In this document: positions 37,624 to 45,986 of the stretch, piece by piece
Layout of the letters: each line of letters opens with the position of its first letter
Position numbering within the stretch: the stretch's first letter is position 1
From: Sphingomonadaceae bacterium
Lineage (GTDB): Bacteria > Chloroflexota > UBA6077
Reading direction: 5' to 3'
Assembly (NCBI GenBank): GCA_050261575.1
Contig: JBLNDL010000013.1
Location: 1-64,000, forward strand
DNA length: 64,000 bases
Made by a program: the position numbers and the translations under genes
The notes under the pieces: model-generated
Database searches by the model: none
What the model was told of the DNA's origin: nothing
What the model saw: only the letters and a program-made list of their open reading frames with translations

Positions 37624-39099
37624 ATGGCAAAGGGAACGGTGCTGGTGGCCGACGATAGCCAGACTTCACTTGCACTGGTGAGAGATCTCCTGGAGAGCAA
37701 CGGTTATAGAGTGATCACCGCGCGAGACGGGCTCGAGGCGGTGGAGCGCGTCTTCAAAGAGGATCCGGACGTGGTACTCCTCGATGTGGTGATGCCCAGG
37801 ATGAACGGCTACCAGGTGTGTCGCATGCTCAAGTTGGACGAGCAGACGAACCACGTTCCGGTGATCATGCTGACGTCTAAGGATCAGCCCGCTGACGAGT
37901 ACTGGGGGCTACAGACCGGGGCAGACAAGTACGTCACGAAGGAACAGCCCCTGAAAATGGTTCTGGAAGCGGTAGCCGGGGTGCTGAACGGGCGGCAGGG
38001 AGCGAGGGGGAGCAGACCGATCGGTGCCGTCGGCCGGTTGACCAGCCCAGTGGACCTGCTGAGCCGGCTGAACGACATACTGGACCGCAAGCTGTACGAG
38101 GCGACGATCCTGGGTGAGGTGAGCAGACTCGCGTGGTCGGCGACGGATCTCGAGAAGACCACGAGGGACGTCATGGCTCTGTTCAGCAAGCTGTTCGAGT
38201 TCAACCTGGCCTGTTTGGTGGTTGGGGGAGACAGGGCGCGTACCGGCGAGGTGCTGTGGATGGTGAAGACGTCGATCTCCACCGCTACTCTGCTGGCCTG
38301 CGAGGAGAGGCTGCTGGGCGCTTATGGCGACAGGTGCGGGATAGCACCGGATCGGCGGCCGCTCAAGCGGCGGACCGTGACGGCGGAGGGGGTTCGTGTG
38401 GGCCAAGGCGAGGAGTGCATGGCAGACCTCGGGGCCTTCCACGCGGTGCCCCTTGGGTCCAAAGAGCACCAGGCGGGACTCTTTGGCCTGTGGGGCGGTG
38501 AGCGGACGTTTGCTTCGCAGGAGTCCCGGCAGATGATCGGCATGCTGGCGAGCGCGGCCTTCGCGGTGCTGGACAACGCGCGTCTGTACCAGGAGATGCA
38601 GCGGCTGGCGACGACCGACGAGTTGACCGGACTGGCCAACTACCGCCAGTTCCAGGAACGGCTGGAGCGGGAATTCCAGCGGAGCAAGCGCACGGGCGAG
38701 CCGCTGTCCGTGCTGATACTGGACTTGGACGATTTCAAGGCGATCAACGATGCGTTCGGCCACAAGCGCGGCGACCAGGTGTTGCAGGCGGTGGGTGCTG
38801 CCCTCAGCGGAAGCGCTCGACCGTACGACCTGATCGCGAGGTACGGGGGCGAGGAGTTCTGCGCGATACTGCCGGGGACCGGGCTGCGCGGCGCTGTGGA
38901 GATGGGCGAACGGCTGCGGTTGCTGGTGCGGACCGTGGCGGCGCGCCTGAACCTGGAGAGACTGAGCACCAGCGTTGGGGCGGCCGTATACCCGAACGAA
39001 CGGGTGCTCGACGCTGACGGGCTGGTGCGCGAGGCGGACGCCGCGCTCTACCGTGCTAAGGCGGAGGGGAAGGACAGGGTCCGCCTGGCTCCCTCGTAG
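37624..39099 (+). CDS. REC-GAF-GGDEF diguanylate cyclase, WspR/PleD-like
   Basis: LLDVVMPRMNG receiver; DLDDFKAINDAFGH; RPYD I-site; GGEEF. Confidence 0.93.
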   Translation: MAKGTVLVADDSQTSLALVRDLLESNGYRVITARDGLEAVERVFKEDPDVVLLDVVMPRMNGYQVCRMLKLDEQTNHVPVIMLTSKDQPADEYWGLQTGADKYVTKEQPLKMVLEAVAGVLNGRQGARGSRPIGAVGRLTSPVDLLSRLNDILDRKLYEATILGEVSRLAWSATDLEKTTRDVMALFSKLFEFNLACLVVGGDRARTGEVLWMVKTSISTATLLACEERLLGAYGDRCGIAPDRRPLKRRTVTAEGVRVGQGEECMADLGAFHAVPLGSKEHQAGLFGLWGGERTFASQESRQMIGMLASAAFAVLDNARLYQEMQRLATTDELTGLANYRQFQERLEREFQRSKRTGEPLSVLILDLDDFKAINDAFGHKRGDQVLQAVGAALSGSARPYDLIARYGGEEFCAILPGTGLRGAVEMGERLRLLVRTVAARLNLERLSTSVGAAVYPNERVLDADGLVREADAALYRAKAEGKDRVRLAPS

Positions 39100-39126
39100 C
39101 GTGCACAGATAGGTCTCCACGACCAC

Positions 39127-39169
39127 AATGTTCGTTAATGTTGACCCGCATCGGGCAGTTGGGAATAAT
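39127..39169 (+). promoter_or_regulatory. Promoter with upstream AATGTT direct repeat
   Basis: TTGACC-17 bp-AATAAT; AATGTT at 39127 and 39137 (10-bp period) overlapping the -35. Confidence 0.55.
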
Positions 39170-39325
39170 CACGCTGGCCCAGTGCCGTGACGTTCCGCAT
39201 CGGGATGCAGGGTGTCGTGTGGTGTGGCGGCGACGTGGGCCGGAAAGGAGGTATGCAGAGCATCAATAAGGCGAAACCCCAGTTCTCCGTTCGGTAGCGC
39301 ACCAAGTGATCGAAAAGGAGATGCC

Positions 39326-39931
39326 ATGTCTCGGATTGTGCATGCCAAAGGTGGCTGGCTCGCGGTGCTCATGGCTCTTGTCCTAACCCTGGTCATGGTC
39401 CCTACCGCATTTGCTGGCGGCGTCGATGTGAAGGTCGGCGACGTGCAGGCGACTGTGTACGCTCCTAGCGTCGTGTGGCAGGCGACCAACGCGCACATAG
39501 TCGTCAAGATGACGAACACCGGCTCCAAGACCGTGACGGTGGACGGGCTGTTCAAGTTCCCGGAGGGGAAGGAGAACCAGTTCACCTACGGGACGAAGAA
39601 GCCCAACGACGTCCCGAAGGAAGGAGCCACTAAGAGCCTCAAGGATCTGAAGCCCGGCGAAAGCAAGTACATCGCTTTCACCTACATCACCCCCAAGGGC
39701 AACGCCCAGCTCGGGCAGTACACCGGCAACCTCACCCTGAAGGTGGATGGTGACTCCAAGGTCATCCCCTGGACTTTCGACGTTCGCACCGGCGCGGTCT
39801 TCGTCGCCCAAACCGATGCCATCGTCTACATGCTCTACGCGATCTCGGCGGGGATGCTGGTGTTCTGGTTCGTCTACTTCAAGTTCTTCGTCAACAAGTC
39901 GTTCAGCATTTTTGCCGGCGAGCAGGGCTAG
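39326..39931 (+). CDS. Exported beta-rich (Ig-like) protein with C-terminal TM anchor
   Basis: Signal peptide ending TAFA; KMTNTG, LKPGESK; TM near the C-terminus; AAGGAG SD. Confidence 0.8.
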   Translation: MSRIVHAKGGWLAVLMALVLTLVMVPTAFAGGVDVKVGDVQATVYAPSVVWQATNAHIVVKMTNTGSKTVTVDGLFKFPEGKENQFTYGTKKPNDVPKEGATKSLKDLKPGESKYIAFTYITPKGNAQLGQYTGNLTLKVDGDSKVIPWTFDVRTGAVFVAQTDAIVYMLYAISAGMLVFWFVYFKFFVNKSFSIFAGEQG

Positions 39932-39947
39932 AAGGGAGGGGTAAGCG

Positions 39948-41249
39948 ATGGCAACCGTCTCTGGTGCGATTGGGGCAGACGTAAAGCCCTGGTCGTTGAA
40001 GGAAGGCACGAGCTTCATTCAGCGTGCCAAGGACCTTGGGCCCGGCGCCTTCGTCGCCGCTACCTTCATTGGCTCCGGCGACATCGCCACCGGCGGTACC
40101 GCGGGTGGCGCGTTCGGCTACGGCTACTGGTGGGCCTACTGGGTCACCTGCACCGTGGCGTGGTTCTGTTTGGACGTAGTCTCCCGCTACTACCTGGTCA
40201 CGGGAAAGGCGGGTGTCTCCATGTTCCGGTCGATCCCGAAGATCGGCTGGTTCCTGGCTCTCTTCGTCGGCCTGTTCGGCGTCTACTACGGGGTCGGCAA
40301 CGTCACTTCCCAGTTCTCGGCGTCCGCGTGGGCGATCACGGGGATGTTCCCTGCCGTCAACTATGAGGTGGCGGCTGGAGCCGTTGCCGTGCTGTGCATG
40401 GTCCTCATCTGGATCGGCAACTACGGGATCCTCGACAGGTTGATGAGCATCATGCTGGGCGCCATAGTGGCGAGCTTCTTCGCGGCGGCCTTCGCGACCG
40501 GCGTCAACATCGCCGATGCGGCCCGAGGCATGATCCCAGCAGGCGACCCGGGAGGAGGGTTCGCCAACAACTTCCAGGCGATCGCCGGCACCAACATCAA
40601 CGGCGCGGCGGTGCTGCTGTTCGCCTACAGCCTGCGGGAGCGCGGGAACCTTCCCGACGACCTGAGGGGCAAGGCTAGGTTCCTCAGCTTCGCAAGGTCC
40701 AACGCCCTGCTCGGCTCCTTCGGGGCGGTGGTGGTCTCCTTCGCGCTGTTGGGCGTGATCAACCAGGTCATCTATCCCTACGGGATCATCCCCCGCAAGC
40801 CCGAGGACTTCGCCATCCTGATCGAGCCGGTCGCGGGCCCCTGGGCCATCCCGGTCTTCAGCCTGGGCGTGCTGGCTGCTGCCCTCTCGTCGGCACTGGG
40901 CAACGGAATGATCGGGGCCTACGTGACCTGCGAGTACTTCCTCGGCAAGCCGGTCAACAGCAACAATATCCACTTCAAGACAGTCTACATACTGAACGCC
41001 GTCATCGCGGGCGGCATCGTGCTGGCCAGGATCGACCCCATCTTCCTCAAGACCATCACCTCCATGATGAACGCGAGCTTCTTCGGGGTGGTCGGGCTGG
41101 TCCTTGCCTACTGGGCCGGTAGCAGTAAGCTGGGCTACTTCCGCAATGGGAGCAGCATACCGCTGTGGGCACTCACCGTGTTGACCATCGTGGTGGCCAG
41201 CTACGTCGGTATCTTCAACCTGGGTGGCTACTTCGGCCTCAAGTTCTAA
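39948..41249 (+). CDS. NRAMP-related (APC superfamily) transporter lacking the DPGN motif
   Basis: LGPGAFVAATFIGSGDIAT...AGGAFGY TM1; about 11 TMs; GVLAAALSS. Confidence 0.8.
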   Translation: MATVSGAIGADVKPWSLKEGTSFIQRAKDLGPGAFVAATFIGSGDIATGGTAGGAFGYGYWWAYWVTCTVAWFCLDVVSRYYLVTGKAGVSMFRSIPKIGWFLALFVGLFGVYYGVGNVTSQFSASAWAITGMFPAVNYEVAAGAVAVLCMVLIWIGNYGILDRLMSIMLGAIVASFFAAAFATGVNIADAARGMIPAGDPGGGFANNFQAIAGTNINGAAVLLFAYSLRERGNLPDDLRGKARFLSFARSNALLGSFGAVVVSFALLGVINQVIYPYGIIPRKPEDFAILIEPVAGPWAIPVFSLGVLAAALSSALGNGMIGAYVTCEYFLGKPVNSNNIHFKTVYILNAVIAGGIVLARIDPIFLKTITSMMNASFFGVVGLVLAYWAGSSKLGYFRNGSSIPLWALTVLTIVVASYVGIFNLGGYFGLKF

Positions 41250-41260
41250 GGAGGGGTGCA

Positions 41261-41347
41261 GTGGAGGTCTTGGCGATCGTAGCAATGGTCGGCTATCTGA
41301 TCCTCGCTGGCTGGGTGATCTACGCCTCCATGTGGGGCAAGGCCTAG
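41261..41347 (+). CDS. 28-aa single-TM peptide
   Basis: AAGGAGG SD directly after the transporter stop; MEVLAIVAMVGYLILAGWVIYASMWGKA. Confidence 0.7.
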   Translation: MEVLAIVAMVGYLILAGWVIYASMWGKA

Positions 41348-41651
41348 GCCGAGGGGCCGCTTCTGGCCAGACGTAATCTGGAATGCCGAGACGCGGGTTC
41401 ACTTGCGGGGCCCGCGTCTCGCTACAATGCAGCATGAGACGGATGGTTCCTCAGGTACCGGTAGGGGCAGACCTTCCGTCTCTCCAGGGCGCGCGTTTGG
41501 GCGCGCCCCTCGCCGGATCGGCAGCCACTCCTGGCGCTGAACACTCGTGGCGTCCGAGCAGGTATCCCTGGTACGAGTCGGTTTCTCTGTCGGGAAACGC
41601 CTAGTCTGCCCAGAGACAATGCTTGGCCTCGCCACCGGAAAGAAGTCTCCC

Positions 41652-42239
41652 ATGTCAAAGGCATTGTTGGCCGTTTTCGCCATCGTTCTGCTCGTCGGCG
41701 GCTACTCCGTCTGGGAGTTCCGAGCCAAGATGGGCGATGCTCGGTTGGGTTCGGACGTTACGTACACCATCGACGCGCAGGGCAACGCCGCCGTCGAGAT
41801 GGTGAACAAGAGCTACTTCACCGATGCCAGCGTAGAGAAGAACTTCGATGGAATGGTGAGCCGACTCGGCCGGCCCGATCCCGAGTCCTTCCGAAAGGGA
41901 CTGGAGGAATCTCTGAAGAAGCTCTCGGAGAAGACTGGCAGAGAGTACGTCGTATCCGACTTCGATGCTGCCTTCGAGCGGCATCCGGAATACGGCGCGC
42001 AAGTGTATCGTTTTCGTTGGTCGGGCTTCGCAGAGGAGCGGGATGGGGTGTGGGTGGTGGACTTCAAGGCCGCCAGCAGTGTGAAGCTGAACAAGGACTC
42101 GGCGCTGACGGTGGTGCTGCCGGAGGGCGTGACGATGGTCAGGGCCAAGCCCGCGCCGACAGCAGGCGACGGGAAAACGAGGCTGGTGTGGACTGGCGCG
42201 GCGGAAATGGCGTGGCCGTTCATCGAATACAGGCGATAG
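41652..42239 (+). CDS. Membrane-anchored hypothetical protein (tentatively DUF4897-like)
   Basis: N-terminal TM; FRWSGFA, LTVVLPEG, LVWTG...WP.IEY. Confidence 0.7.
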   Translation: MSKALLAVFAIVLLVGGYSVWEFRAKMGDARLGSDVTYTIDAQGNAAVEMVNKSYFTDASVEKNFDGMVSRLGRPDPESFRKGLEESLKKLSEKTGREYVVSDFDAAFERHPEYGAQVYRFRWSGFAEERDGVWVVDFKAASSVKLNKDSALTVVLPEGVTMVRAKPAPTAGDGKTRLVWTGAAEMAWPFIEYRR

Positions 42240-42271
42240 GTGTTGGACCTGGATTCTCGAGGAGGATTGGG

Positions 42272-42532
42272 ATGAGGTTGCCTATCACCCCAGGCTCGTA
42301 CGAGCCTGGGAGCATGGCGGGTGGTGGCAAGTACGGGGCGCCCACGCAGGCGCCCAGGGTCGATGCCTCGAAGTGCACCCAGTGCCTTGCCTGCTGGATC
42401 TTCTGCCCCGACAGCGCGATCTCGGTGGATGGGAGTGCCGTGATCGTGGACGTTACCCACTGTAAGGGCTGCGGCATCTGCGCCACCGAGTGCCCCGAAG
42501 GGGCCATCCGCATGATTGGGGTGGCGGAGTGA
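42272..42532 (+). CDS. porD: 2x[4Fe-4S] delta subunit of a 2-oxoacid:ferredoxin oxidoreductase
   Basis: CTQCLACWIFCPD and CKGCGICATECP; GGAGG SD. Confidence 0.9.
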   Translation: MRLPITPGSYEPGSMAGGGKYGAPTQAPRVDASKCTQCLACWIFCPDSAISVDGSAVIVDVTHCKGCGICATECPEGAIRMIGVAE

Positions 42533-43740
42533 TGCGCGAGACGGTCCAGCTAACTGGAAACCAGGCCGCAGCAGAGGCGGCGCGGCTGGCAAGAACAGAG
42601 GTGTTCCCCGCATTCCCGATTACGCCGTCGTTTCCGGTGATGACGTTCCTCACCAGGGCGATCGACGAGGGGAAGCTGCGAGCCAGGTTCATCAGGGTTG
42701 AGTCCGACCACAGCGCCCTTGCAGCGGCAGTGGGGGCGTCGTTGGCGGGGGCTCGCACTTTCAGCGTCACCAACTCCCAGGGCCTGGCCATGATGCACGA
42801 AGTGCTGCACTTCGCGGCCGGACTTCGGCTTCCCATCGTGATGGCGGTGGTCAACCGGGCCCTGTCCGCGCCGCACAACCGCTTCGCGGACCACGGTGAT
42901 GCGATAGCCCAGGAGACCACCGGCTGGCTCCAACTCTTCTGCGAGAGCAACCAGGAGGTGCTGGACACCATCGTCCAGGCCTTCCGGATTGCGGAGGATG
43001 CCCGGGTACTGCTTCCCGTGCTTGTGAACTACGAGGGCTACATCCTCGGCGATACCAGGCAGGAGGTGGTGCTCCCGGCAGATGGCGAGGTGGATGCCTT
43101 TCTGCCACCCTACTCACGGGCTGTGCTGGACGTGGACCAGCCCGCATCGCTCAACCCCCCTACCGGACCCTCTCTGTACACCGAGTTCAAGTTCCAGGAG
43201 CACGCGGCGAACCTAGCAGCTCTAGAGGTGATCGAGGAAGTCAGCGCGGAGTACGGGCGCCTCTTCGGTCGAGACTGGGACGGCGCGGTGGAAGGGTACC
43301 AGACCGAGGACGCAGACGCGTTGATAGTGGCGATGGGCTCCATGGTGGCTGCTGCCAGACAGGCGGTCGACGCCATGCGGGGTGCCGGCAAGCGGATCGG
43401 CCTGGTGAAGGTTCGCTCGTTCCGCCCCTTCCCCTTCCAGGAATTGGCGAGGCTAGCGGGGAGGGCTCGTGCCCTCGCCGTGCTCGATCGATGCGCAGTG
43501 TACGGGGTTGGCGGGGCTCTCTATCGGGAGGTGCTGATGGCTCTCGCGCAGGCCGGACTCTCCAAGCCTGTGCTCGGGGTGATTGCGGGCCTCGGGGGCC
43601 GCGAGGTGGCCCCGGCGGACGTGGAGTCGGTGGGGGAGCGCGCACTGTCGGTGGCGGCCACCGGAGAGCCTGGGGGCCAGGTAATCTGGTTGAAGCTCAA
43701 CAGCGAGATCTTGCGTGAGGAGGCGGCGAGGTGGATCTAG
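42532..43740 (+). CDS. porA: 2-oxoacid:ferredoxin oxidoreductase alpha-like subunit (divergent)
   Basis: GNQAAA, FPITP, VESDHSA, NSQGL, NRALSAP, RSFRPFP, GLGGR. Confidence 0.88.
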   Translation: MRETVQLTGNQAAAEAARLARTEVFPAFPITPSFPVMTFLTRAIDEGKLRARFIRVESDHSALAAAVGASLAGARTFSVTNSQGLAMMHEVLHFAAGLRLPIVMAVVNRALSAPHNRFADHGDAIAQETTGWLQLFCESNQEVLDTIVQAFRIAEDARVLLPVLVNYEGYILGDTRQEVVLPADGEVDAFLPPYSRAVLDVDQPASLNPPTGPSLYTEFKFQEHAANLAALEVIEEVSAEYGRLFGRDWDGAVEGYQTEDADALIVAMGSMVAAARQAVDAMRGAGKRIGLVKVRSFRPFPFQELARLAGRARALAVLDRCAVYGVGGALYREVLMALAQAGLSKPVLGVIAGLGGREVAPADVESVGERALSVAATGEPGGQVIWLKLNSEILREEAARWI

Positions 43741-44597
43741 GAGAGATCGAGCTGCTGAGGAGTCTACCCCGAGAGGAGTTGCTCACGGGTGGCCACGGGG
43801 GAATGGCCGGCTACGGAGGGGCTATTGCCCTGAGGCAGGCGCTGAAAGCGCTGGGGCCCAGAACGATCCTCTGCATTCCGGCCTCATCGCTGGCGACTGC
43901 CGTAGCGCTGGATCTTCGCACCGCCTTGAAGGTGCCCCAGATCCACTGCCTGTTCGAGAGTTCCGCGGTGATCGCCTCCGGCATCAAGGCGGCGCTGGAG
44001 ATGAAGGGGAAGGATGACGTGACGGTGGTGTCGTGGGCCGGCGACGCCGGGACCGCGGACATCGGCTTCCAGTCGGTGAGCGGGGCCGCGGAGCGGAACG
44101 ACGACATCATCCACGTGTGCTACGACGACGAGGCGTACCTGAACACGAGTGGGCAGGCAGGCGGGCTCACTCCGAAGATGGCCACCACTGTCGACACGCC
44201 GTGGGGCAAGGAGACGCCCAAGAAGGACATGATCTCCATCATGGCCGGGCACGGCGTTCCCTACGTTGCGAGTGCGTCCATAGCCTACCCCGGGGATCTC
44301 ATTCGCAAGGTGCGGCGCGCGAAGGAGCTGAAGGGGTTCCGCTACATCCACGTGCTCGCTCCACAGCCGCAGGGATGGGGTTATCCGCCGGATCAGACGA
44401 TCCGGATGGCGCGCATGGCCGTGGAGACCGGGCTGTGGCCGCTGGTGGAGGTGGTGGGTGGAGTGAGAGTTCTCACCTATCGCCCGGAGCGGCGGATCCC
44501 GGTACGCGACTACATTCGGGCGCAGCGGCGGTTCGACAGAATGAGCGACGAGGAGATCGAAGAGCTACAAGAAGCGGTGGACCGAGCCTGGAGGTAA
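43731..44597 (+). CDS. porB: 2-oxoacid:ferredoxin oxidoreductase beta-like subunit lacking Fe-S cysteines
   Basis: GDAGTADIG...YDDEAYLNT ThDP-type motif; GHGGMAGYG in place of GHxxCxGCG. Confidence 0.85.
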   Translation: MDLGEIELLRSLPREELLTGGHGGMAGYGGAIALRQALKALGPRTILCIPASSLATAVALDLRTALKVPQIHCLFESSAVIASGIKAALEMKGKDDVTVVSWAGDAGTADIGFQSVSGAAERNDDIIHVCYDDEAYLNTSGQAGGLTPKMATTVDTPWGKETPKKDMISIMAGHGVPYVASASIAYPGDLIRKVRRAKELKGFRYIHVLAPQPQGWGYPPDQTIRMARMAVETGLWPLVEVVGGVRVLTYRPERRIPVRDYIRAQRRFDRMSDEEIEELQEAVDRAWR

Positions 44598-44614
44598 GTC
44601 CGGCCGATTGGACC

Positions 44615-44701
44615 GATCCGTAGATGTCGCGGGTGCCGCAGCCGGTGGAGATGCGTGTTCAGACAGGAGAGATCTGCGTCGACCTGCGACATCTGTGGAT
44701 C
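44615..44701. repeat. Eroded long palindromic intergenic repeat
   Basis: GATCCGTAGATGTCGCGGGT...ACCTGCGACATCTGTGGATC arms. Confidence 0.6.
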
Positions 44702-44760
44702 AGCTTTAGGGAGGCTTAGTGGTTTTTATCCTGGAGTGACTGCTGTAGGGCCAAATGCCG

Positions 44761-44839
44761 TTGCGCAGGGGGAGCGTCCCTGCTATAATCTCATTGCAAC
44801 AGTTCCGACTTGAAGTGGTGGGCGCGCCCCCACTTTTTT
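44761..44839 (+). promoter_or_regulatory. nusA operon promoter and leader hairpin
   Basis: TTGCGC-17 bp-TATAAT with extended -10 TG; AAGTGG..GGGCGCGCCCCCACTT then TTTT. Confidence 0.7.
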
Positions 44840-44903
44840 GTTGCGGCCCTGCAAGGGCGCAGGGATGTCTTAGGGGTGTCGGCTTCCTGCAGGAGGGATT
44901 GCG

Positions 44904-45986
44904 ATGAAGAGCGACTTTGTGACAGCGATAAGCCAGCTTTGTAGCGAGAAGGGCGTCACGCGCGAAGCGGTGATGCACGCTATCGAAGTGGCTTTGGTGT
45001 CTGCCTACAAGAAGAACTTCGCCCCCACAGGTCAGAACGTCACCGCTCAGATCGATCCGGCCACGGGCGCGGTTCGGATCTTCGCCGAGAAGCAAGTGGT
45101 GGAGCAGAATGGGGAGGCGGGCCCAGACAAGATCCCGCTGGACGTCGCTCGGAAGATCCGCCCGGACATCCAGGTAGGCGAAACCCTCGCTGTGGAAACC
45201 ACGCCTCCCAACTTCGGCCGCATCGCGGCGCAGACTGCCAAGCAGGTGATCCTGCAGCGGCTGCGCGACGAGGAGCGGCGGATGATCTACGACGAGTACC
45301 ACGAGCGAGAAGGGGAGCTGCTGCACGGTGTAGTGCAGCGGATCGAGAACCGCACGGTGTACATCGACCTGGGGAAGGCAGAGGGAGTCATGGCTCCCAG
45401 CGATCAGGTTCCCACAGAGCGGTACCATCCCGGGCAGCGATTGCGGGTGTACCTGGTCGAGGTGCACGATACCCACAAGGGGCCTCAGATCATAGTATCC
45501 CGGAATCACAAGGCGATGCTGCGCCGCCTGTTCGAGCAGGAGGTTCCCGAGATCTTCAACGGCACGGTGGAGTTGAAGGCTATCGCCAGGGAGGCTGGAG
45601 CGCGTTCCAAGGTGGCTGTGGCCGCCCGGCAGGAAGGCATCGACCCGGTGGGATCGTGTGTCGGGATGCGCGGTGTGCGCATCCAGAACATCGTCAACGA
45701 GTTGGGTGGCGAGAAGATCGACGTGGTGCAGTGGAGCCCGGACGCGGCGACATTCGTTGCGAACGCCCTGAGCCCGGCCCAGGTGATCAGCGTCGACATC
45801 AACGAAGAGGAAAAGACCGCCACAGTCATCGTGCCCGAGAGGCAGCTTTCGCTGGCGATCGGGAAGGAAGGCCAGAACGCACGGTTGGCGGCGAAGTTGA
45901 CCGGCTGGCGCATAGATATCAAGGCGGCAGGCGCCGAGCCTGTGGGCCCCGAGGTGGGAGAGACCGCCACGGAGTCTGTTCAGTAG
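44904..45986 (+). CDS. nusA: Transcription factor NusA
   Basis: FGRIAAQTAKQVILQ, AREAGARSKVAV, LAIGKEGQNARLAAKLTGW. Confidence 0.98.
   Translation: MKSDFVTAISQLCSEKGVTREAVMHAIEVALVSAYKKNFAPTGQNVTAQIDPATGAVRIFAEKQVVEQNGEAGPDKIPLDVARKIRPDIQVGETLAVETTPPNFGRIAAQTAKQVILQRLRDEERRMIYDEYHEREGELLHGVVQRIENRTVYIDLGKAEGVMAPSDQVPTERYHPGQRLRVYLVEVHDTHKGPQIIVSRNHKAMLRRLFEQEVPEIFNGTVELKAIAREAGARSKVAVAARQEGIDPVGSCVGMRGVRIQNIVNELGGEKIDVVQWSPDAATFVANALSPAQVISVDINEEEKTATVIVPERQLSLAIGKEGQNARLAAKLTGWRIDIKAAGAEPVGPEVGETATESVQ

Follow-up and report, generated by a model that had tools for sequence, protein, structure and literature searches.

Introduction

The proximal [4Fe-4S] cluster of domain VI and the coenzyme A (CoA)-binding domain III are treated as family-wide features of the 2-oxoacid:ferredoxin oxidoreductases (OFORs) (PMC13768988, PMC12337175). 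Here we describe a three-gene OFOR-like locus, delta-alpha-beta, that apparently departs from both. It lies in a stretch of 64,000 nucleotides from a Chloroflexota genome (contig JBLNDL010000013.1, positions 1 to 64,000), which we refer to as the window. Its beta subunit lacks all four cysteines of the proximal cluster.

The best solved match of the encoded proteins is M. acetivorans PorABCD (PDB 9bt4), a pyruvate:ferredoxin oxidoreductase (PFOR), with E-values of 2e-93 for alpha and 3e-63 for beta. PorABCD also has a separate delta subunit with two cluster motifs, a YPITP-type Thr and a carboxylate-binding Arg. In contrast to it, the proteins described here lack the proximal-cluster cysteines and gamma, and they carry Asp in place of the thiamine diphosphate (ThDP)-activating Glu, GDAG and YDDE motifs, and a His/Arg pair in the substrate loop. 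The three proteins match the PorD, PorA and PorB families, with alpha and beta below the equivalog cut-offs. The second-best match for alpha and beta, and the best for delta, is the oxalate oxidoreductase (OOR) of Moorella thermoacetica (PDB 5c4i, 5exd, 5exe), a CoA-independent member of the OFOR family. OOR is characterized by YPIRP (Arg31), Asp116, Glu59, three clusters and a gamma fused to delta, whereas in the present proteins these positions read T31 (FPITP), N116/R117 and D59, and there are no more than two clusters. They scored 256 and 215 bits against the OOR profiles, whose cut-offs are 500 and 590.

Two further systems are relevant for their chemistry. Cysteine mutants of S. tokodaii (Sulfurisphaera/Sulfolobus) OFOR1 lack the proximal cluster and have lost oxidative activity, yet still decarboxylate pyruvate to acetaldehyde without CoA (PMC5020499, PMC9405506, citing Yan 2014). 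They are laboratory-made, two-subunit enzymes with no delta, whereas the locus described here is natural, under selection and keeps its ferredoxin subunit. Acetohydroxyacid synthase (AHAS) and glyoxylate carboligase are net non-redox ThDP enzymes that retain flavin adenine dinucleotide (FAD) from an oxidase-like ancestor (PMC5298238). They belong to another ThDP superfamily with a different fold arrangement and so offer an analogy for delta, not kinship.

Results

Loss of the Proximal-Cluster Cysteines in Beta

Beta residues M25, Y28, S53 and Q212 align with the four cluster cysteines of the M. acetivorans PFOR beta (9bt4_C) and of the OOR beta (5c4i_C). The codons at these sites are ATG, TAC, TCG and CAG; as these are ordinary codons, selenocysteine or other recoding was ruled out. 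The three reading frames are intact on the + strand and overlap by 1 nt (delta/alpha) and 10 nt (alpha/beta). An earlier note on this DNA, made from the sequence alone, had reported the loss of all four Fe-S cysteines and the intact, overlapping frames, and was right on both.

The OFOR fold of alpha and beta is indicated by the Pfam families POR_N, PFOR_II and TPP_enzyme_C, by the PDB matches and by an AlphaFold2 prediction for beta with a pLDDT of 96, which superimposes on 9bt4_C with a root mean square deviation of 1.3 Å and a TM score of 0.92. The model was built on 91 sequences, 71 of them cysteine-keeping. It shows a predicted fold compatible with an OFOR and says nothing on whether the cavity left by the cluster is filled. 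We also predicted the complex of alpha, beta and delta with two [4Fe-4S] clusters; a control in which alpha was replaced scored equally high, and this prediction is not used as evidence.

Counts of beta homologues refer to the best 120 of 457 matches, the protein from the window included. Cysteine was absent at every covered site in 21 of them; 97 kept all four and two were partial. The earlier note had proposed searching for a clade that shares the losses, and these 21 are such a set. Sixteen read M-Y-S-Q (our own protein and one partial sequence included), four I-Y-A-N and one D-H-Y-N. Because 14 other full-length proteins, 76–89% identical, carry the same four M-Y-S-Q residues, sequencing error and chance are excluded. 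All 21 have an aromatic residue at a former cysteine site: Y28 in 20, and H28 together with Y53 in the remaining one. An alignment of the 20 full-length cysteine-less betas revealed no conserved substitute cysteine, which speaks against alternative cysteine ligands; the earlier note had considered alternative ligands with normal OFOR activity fatal to its idea.

Among 150 distant representatives (of 3641 matches) the cysteine-less pattern was found in P0386 alone; a few more, either fragments or sequences that align poorly, deviate at a single site. The 134 other beta matches in the loci examined all have the four cysteines and Asn133. In 66 genomes of the class, 401 genomes of the phylum and 60 relatives of genome G041 we found only our own locus, one more cysteine-less locus and a pair of canonical betas reading CCCC. 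One unpublished genome, G037, is counted among those of the class and of the relatives; it has no relevant match, and nothing stated here depends on it alone.

Long inserts beside the ThDP motif were seen in some distant PorB representatives (P0364, P0381, P0392, P0409, P0413, P0414, P0417, P0418, P0443, P0445, P0448, P0453, P0476 and P0502). Several start with Cys and end with His-Asn, which is intein-like, and there are at least three insertion points.

Selection and Number of Origins

Selection on beta is purifying, perhaps slightly relaxed. The ratio of nonsynonymous to synonymous substitution rates (dN/dS, Nei-Gojobori) was 0.108 against the homologous locus L058, 0.178 against the partial locus L004 and 0.304 against L031, compared with 0.058–0.093 for three cysteine-keeping beta pairs and 0.043–0.056 for nusA. 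As synonymous sites are near saturation, the larger beta values are probably inflated. No stops or frameshifts were found in the 20 full-length cysteine-less betas, which are 61–100% identical.

In a quick tree that included the cysteine columns, the 20 cysteine-less betas formed one clade (SH-aLRT 96). When these columns were left out, 13 of them fell in an unresolved group with three cysteine-keeping proteins, and a single cysteine-less clade was recovered in 10% of bootstrap trees, compatible with 1–3 origins. The loss may thus have arisen once or up to three times.

Cofactor and Substrate Sites

We compared the 20 full-length cysteine-less betas with 96 cysteine-keeping relatives, in which 95 sites are ≥97% conserved. 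Of these sites 79 are retained in the cysteine-less proteins, and six are changed in all 20: the four cysteines, Asn133, which is Asp in 20/20 (Asn in 96/96 of the relatives), and Met137, which is Leu or Trp. Besides the cysteines themselves, only these two substitutions fully follow the loss. The Asn at the site equivalent to 133 binds Mg in OFORs (PMC5020499). Residues F75, E76, G104, D105, G107, D110, D132, E134, Y136, N138, T139 and Q142 are invariant in all 20 proteins. A hypergeometric test of this cofactor-site invariance gave P ~1e-5 and was set aside, since the sites were chosen after the alignment had been seen; a fair background gives ~0.1.

In the alphas that match cysteine-less betas, T31 is present in 15/15, and R109, H115 and R117 in 16/16. 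The residue roles in PFOR and OOR given here are taken from PMC5020499 and from general knowledge of these enzymes. The equivalents of T31 and R109 hold the substrate carboxylate in PFOR, and H115/R117 lie in the loop that in D. africanus PFOR contributes Leu121 to the methyl pocket and in OOR contains Asp116 (PMC5020499). H115 and R117 are also invariant in 96/96 alphas of a cysteine-keeping sister subfamily described below. The pair suggests a substrate with a second anionic group. Oxalate was ruled out as the substrate, there being no Arg31.

The motifs GDAG, YDDEAY, VESDHSA and FPITPSFP read as the earlier note had quoted them. It had counted GDAG and the Glu-to-Asp change in alpha as parts of one coordinated loss, and in this it was mistaken: A106 of GDAG occurs in 119 of the best 120 beta matches, and D59, which aligns with the conserved ThDP Glu, in 118/120 alpha rows (own included), cysteine-keeping relatives among them in both cases. 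GDAG, D133 for Asn and D59 for Glu are variants that retain carboxylate or amide ligands at the predicted ThDP/Mg site. Two alphas of the subfamily, P0136 and P0142, have Glu instead of Asp at position 59; the contig of P0142 is equal in size to that of the cysteine-keeping beta P0030.

Gamma and the Cysteine-Keeping Sister Subfamily

No gamma gene adjoins the delta-alpha-beta genes. The genome, which is scored 100% complete, has no orthologue of the short gamma found in the subfamily; the best matches, at 36%, lie in other OFOR operons. Gamma may be borrowed from one of these, as cross-cluster subunit pairing is known for T. tenax (PMC13768988). The short gamma is still present in the cysteine-less locus L031, upstream of whose OFOR genes lie a LarA-family and a CGGC gene, and the gamma of the sister subfamily is already truncated. 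Thus, the absence of an adjacent gamma in the earlier note stands, whereas its placement within a coordinated loss does not.

The sister subfamily comes from Neomoorella, Thermanaeromonas, Desulfosporosinus and Negativicutes (26 loci, L032–L057). Its betas are 52–62% identical to the cysteine-less ones, and both groups have GDAG, VE(S/C)DH, a PHxRF loop and the order delta-alpha-beta, followed in the sisters by the short gamma where the contig shows it. The sisters differ in having the four cysteines, Asn133, the short gamma and a distinct set of neighbors: a sigma-54 activator in 23 of the 26 loci (PrpR-type where checked), a carrier of the MatC, GntP or TctA kind in 19, a LeuC-like gene in 18, and GlcD/F genes, GlcD being present in nine; several of the loci end early at contig ends.

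In the short sister gammas GRxGQ is followed by P, S or R in 38/38 cases. Two canonical gammas in the same scan read GRGGQG, which we take to be the CoA-binding P-loop of domain III. With this loop altered, the sisters are probably CoA-independent. Binding of CoA by the domain III P-loop is described in PMC8091585. From their sequences and neighbors, the sisters are probably CoA-independent oxidases of a 2-oxoacid from a carboxylate pathway.

The sister loci themselves (e.g., L035:4182-11910 and L049:4379-14879), with dicarboxylate carriers and GlcD/F, look like an undescribed carboxylate pathway. No small subunit was seen beside the LeuC-like large subunit, which has an unusual cysteine pattern, GGC...CGPC. 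Upstream of one sister OFOR (L042:2188-3756) lie genes for a ferredoxin-domain protein and a 224-aa protein of no family. In a genome of the same family as the window's (L146, G004:C28), the delta of one OFOR is part of a frame of 321 aa, which is as long as the fused gamma-delta of OOR.

Gene Neighborhood

The features of the locus are listed in Table 1. The genes for the small Ig-like protein, the NRAMP-like transporter and the DUF4897 protein precede delta-alpha-beta in a six-gene block.

Table 1. Features of the cysteine-less OFOR locus and its upstream genes (positions in the window).
Feature	Position	Strand	Remarks
Small Ig-like (CARDB/NPCBM-associated-like) protein, hydrophobic ends	39326..39931	+	First gene of the block
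NRAMP-like transporter, GSGD in helix 1	39948..41249	+	GSGD aligned to GNDAGG of 7qia; candidate substrate importer
DUF4897 protein, N-terminal hydrophobic segment	41652..42239	+	32 nt 5' of delta; same block
Delta subunit (PorD-like), 2x[4Fe-4S] ferredoxin, N-terminal arm	42272..42532	+	86 aa; all 8 Cys present; TIGR02179 above cut-off
Alpha subunit (PorA-like, domains I-II)	42532..43740	+	402 aa; T31, R109, D59; loop H115-x-R117-F118
Alpha D59 replacing ThDP-activating Glu	42706..42708	+	Subfamily-wide; predates Cys loss
Beta subunit (PorB-like, domain VI), all four proximal-cluster Cys absent	43731..44597	+	288 aa; ThDP/Mg motifs retained, in part as variants
Beta codons 25-28, M-A-G-Y replacing C-x-G-C	43803..43814	+	Alignment, codons
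Beta S53 replacing third cluster Cys	43887..43889	+	Alignment, codon
Beta D133 replacing Mg-binding Asn	44127..44129	+	Tracks Cys loss
Beta Q212 replacing fourth cluster Cys	44364..44366	+	Alignment, codon

In genome G001 (same family, 97% complete) a GGDEF gene is directly followed by nusA, and the block is absent there. In genome G002 the first three genes of the block are arranged as in the window (identities of 76, 88 and 70%) and lie at the end of one contig; the last part of beta, with nusA, lies at the end of another. No delta or alpha was located in G002, and both probably fall in an assembly gap. The transporter was matched in 2/66 class genomes, the same two that have an M-Y-S-Q beta. 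The six genes thus look like one unit, with support from two genomes, which is thin. In all three M-Y-S-Q loci (window, L058, L004) nusA lies directly 3' of beta.

Among the 401 phylum genomes the transporter had no match beyond the window and G002, and it therefore gives no hint of the substrate. It may carry an organic solute. An Rfam scan of positions 39000-45200 gave no match, and the sole promoter-like site, at 39141-39169, scored at chance level. The leader 5' of nusA (window 44790-44850) contains a GC-rich hairpin and a T run (44817-44834), nearly identical in L058 (1150-1260); it has no Rfam match and is a possible attenuator. In G002 (L169:2929-4195), unlike in the window, the transporter block is immediately preceded by a fragment of a molybdopterin oxidoreductase and by an Fe-S subunit with four clusters.

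Elsewhere, the genome encodes seven other OFOR sets, the betas of which have the cluster cysteine motifs, plus seven gamma-domain matches. These paralogues are only 37–45% identical to the proteins of the locus. There are eight AOR-family matches.

Discussion

The residues predicted to bind the substrate carboxylate (alpha T31 and R109, beta N138) and ThDP (beta D105) are retained while the cysteines of the redox relay are absent. With the ThDP and carboxylate sites kept but no relay, the most economical explanation is that the enzyme carries out decarboxylation or carboligation without oxidation. We therefore favor a reading in which delta-alpha-beta acts on an anionic 2-oxoacid as a non-oxidative ThDP enzyme, either a decarboxylase or a lyase, and put its chances at about even.

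The three proteins would form a ThDP enzyme on an OFOR scaffold without the proximal [4Fe-4S] cluster. Tyr28 and Met25 would occupy the former cluster cavity, and Asp133, beside the Mg-diphosphate site, may compensate for the negative charge lost with the cluster. The 2-oxoacid would be decarboxylated without oxidation, the enamine being protonated and CoA not used, giving CO2 and an aldehyde or a carboligation product. Alpha H115/R117 would hold the second anionic group of the substrate, which could be oxaloacetate, 2-oxomalonate or another 2-oxoacid with two carboxylates, or else a sulfo or phospho analogue. The substrate might be imported by the NRAMP-like transporter, and the aldehyde might be passed to one of the AOR-family enzymes of the genome. 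Delta would be retained for a structural or redox-sensing function, or would serve a partner enzyme as its docked ferredoxin. The FAD of AHAS is a precedent for a vestigial redox cofactor, a view that the authors of PMC5298238 themselves question.

Several observations weigh against such an enzyme, the conservation of delta above all. Delta, as the earlier note had observed, has both CxxCxxCxxxCP motifs of a domain V with two [4Fe-4S] clusters. Both motifs are found in 14/15 of its closest matches (one of these being the sequence cluster that includes the window's own delta; the match that departs is aberrant at its C-terminus), as well as in L031, and its first 14 residues hardly vary. Of 35 sister deltas, five retain a single cluster, so cluster loss is possible in this subunit (the four cysteines are missing in L043:6409-6792, L045:6531-6806, L048:6529-6804, L068:1746-2039 and L074:6531-6806, of which L045 and L074 look identical). 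Still, the identity of the delta ferredoxin core is 69% between cysteine-less pairs (21) and 59% between sister pairs (81) at matched alpha divergence, where the pairs are non-independent and alpha and delta were paired by equal size of their source contigs. This conservation is unlike that expected of a vestige; it is the main puzzle and leaves room for a redox role. Further, the comparison of sites found no newly fixed acid near the substrate pocket that could protonate the enamine; H115 is a candidate general acid, yet is common to the cysteine-keeping sisters. The retention of cofactor residues is weak proof of catalysis, as 79/95 sites are kept anyway and 12/12 has a chance of ~0.1. No AOR gene adjoins the locus. 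Finally, the decarboxylase activity of Sulfolobales OFORs is low, 0.03–0.13 U/mg (PMC9405506).

The conservation of delta fits a rival reading, in which the enzyme has remained an oxidative decarboxylase that needs no CoA, as the sisters probably are. Electrons would then pass from the ThDP enamine to the medial cluster of delta across a cavity filled by Tyr and Met, or delta would dock closer. We regard this as a serious possibility, though an unlikely one. The eight cysteines and N-terminal arm of delta, more conserved than in the sisters, fit it, as do the aromatic residue fixed in all 21 cysteine-less betas and the sister gamma without the canonical loop, by which CoA-independence probably came earlier. 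On the other side, natural electron-transfer chains usually keep within 14 Å, and the gap from ThDP to the medial cluster would presumably exceed 20 Å. Tyrosine relays carry oxidizing holes, not low-potential electrons. In a published model the ferredoxin cluster lies 14 Å from the proximal cluster (PMC5020499). Removal of the cluster abolishes oxidation in the S. tokodaii OFOR, though that enzyme is delta-less (PMC5020499, PMC9405506). An oxidizing OFOR that has dispensed with a cluster considered essential throughout the family and transfers electrons directly to its ferredoxin subunit via an aromatic plug, the loss having occurred perhaps as many as three times and been accompanied on each occasion by Asn-to-Asp at the Mg site, seems to us rather improbable.

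A catalytically silent complex, either a ligand- or redox-sensing one or a regulatory partner mixing with another OFOR, is more doubtful. The genome does offer seven cluster-bearing beta paralogues as partners, and Asp in place of Glu usually lowers ThDP activation. However, Asp59 is common to the cluster-complete sisters, the locus encodes an alpha and a delta of its own and the paralogues are distant, the cofactor and carboxylate residues are retained, and a transporter goes along with the block, as expected of a catabolic unit. A small share of probability, about as slight, is left for chemistry outside these readings. Decay after loss of function is very improbable, even with a dN/dS somewhat above that of cysteine-keeping pairs (0.11–0.18 vs. 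0.06–0.09) and a patchy distribution (a full-length match in 2/66 class genomes), as the replacements are fixed and not drifting and the frames of all 20 full-length betas stay open although synonymous sites are near saturation.

The claims of the earlier note on function can be judged accordingly. Of the new roles it had suggested, a non-oxidative lyase or decarboxylase is the best fit, and a non-catalytic partner of another OFOR is weak, given the alpha and delta of the locus itself; it had not weighed the conservation of delta, which argues against a purely non-redox enzyme. The outcome that it had named as contrary, substitutions unique to this genome in a decaying gene, was not what we found: they are clade-wide, with a dN/dS of ~0.11 and no stops or frameshifts.

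The literature searched, which took in few subscription papers and no supplements, yielded no natural OFOR that lacks the proximal cluster. The locus is apparently a natural, selected and undescribed OFOR variant that departs from the family in two defining features, the cluster cysteines and gamma. It is likely an oxidoreductase turned non-oxidative 2-oxoacid decarboxylase, a form so far made only by mutation.

Together with the cluster-complete sisters, the cysteine-less lineage provides a ready before-and-after pair. If it is a decarboxylase, it would be a dedicated aldehyde-forming ThDP enzyme derived from an oxidoreductase, the Fe-S parallel of the step from oxidase to AHAS, and possibly an anaerobic decarboxylase for engineering. 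If it still oxidizes its substrate, it would be a case of electrons travelling a long distance with no proximal cluster in between. The sister subfamily, present in cultured Neomoorella and Desulfosporosinus, also looks uncharacterized. As databases label the proteins pyruvate synthase or PFOR, metabolic models of these Chloroflexota probably misread them.

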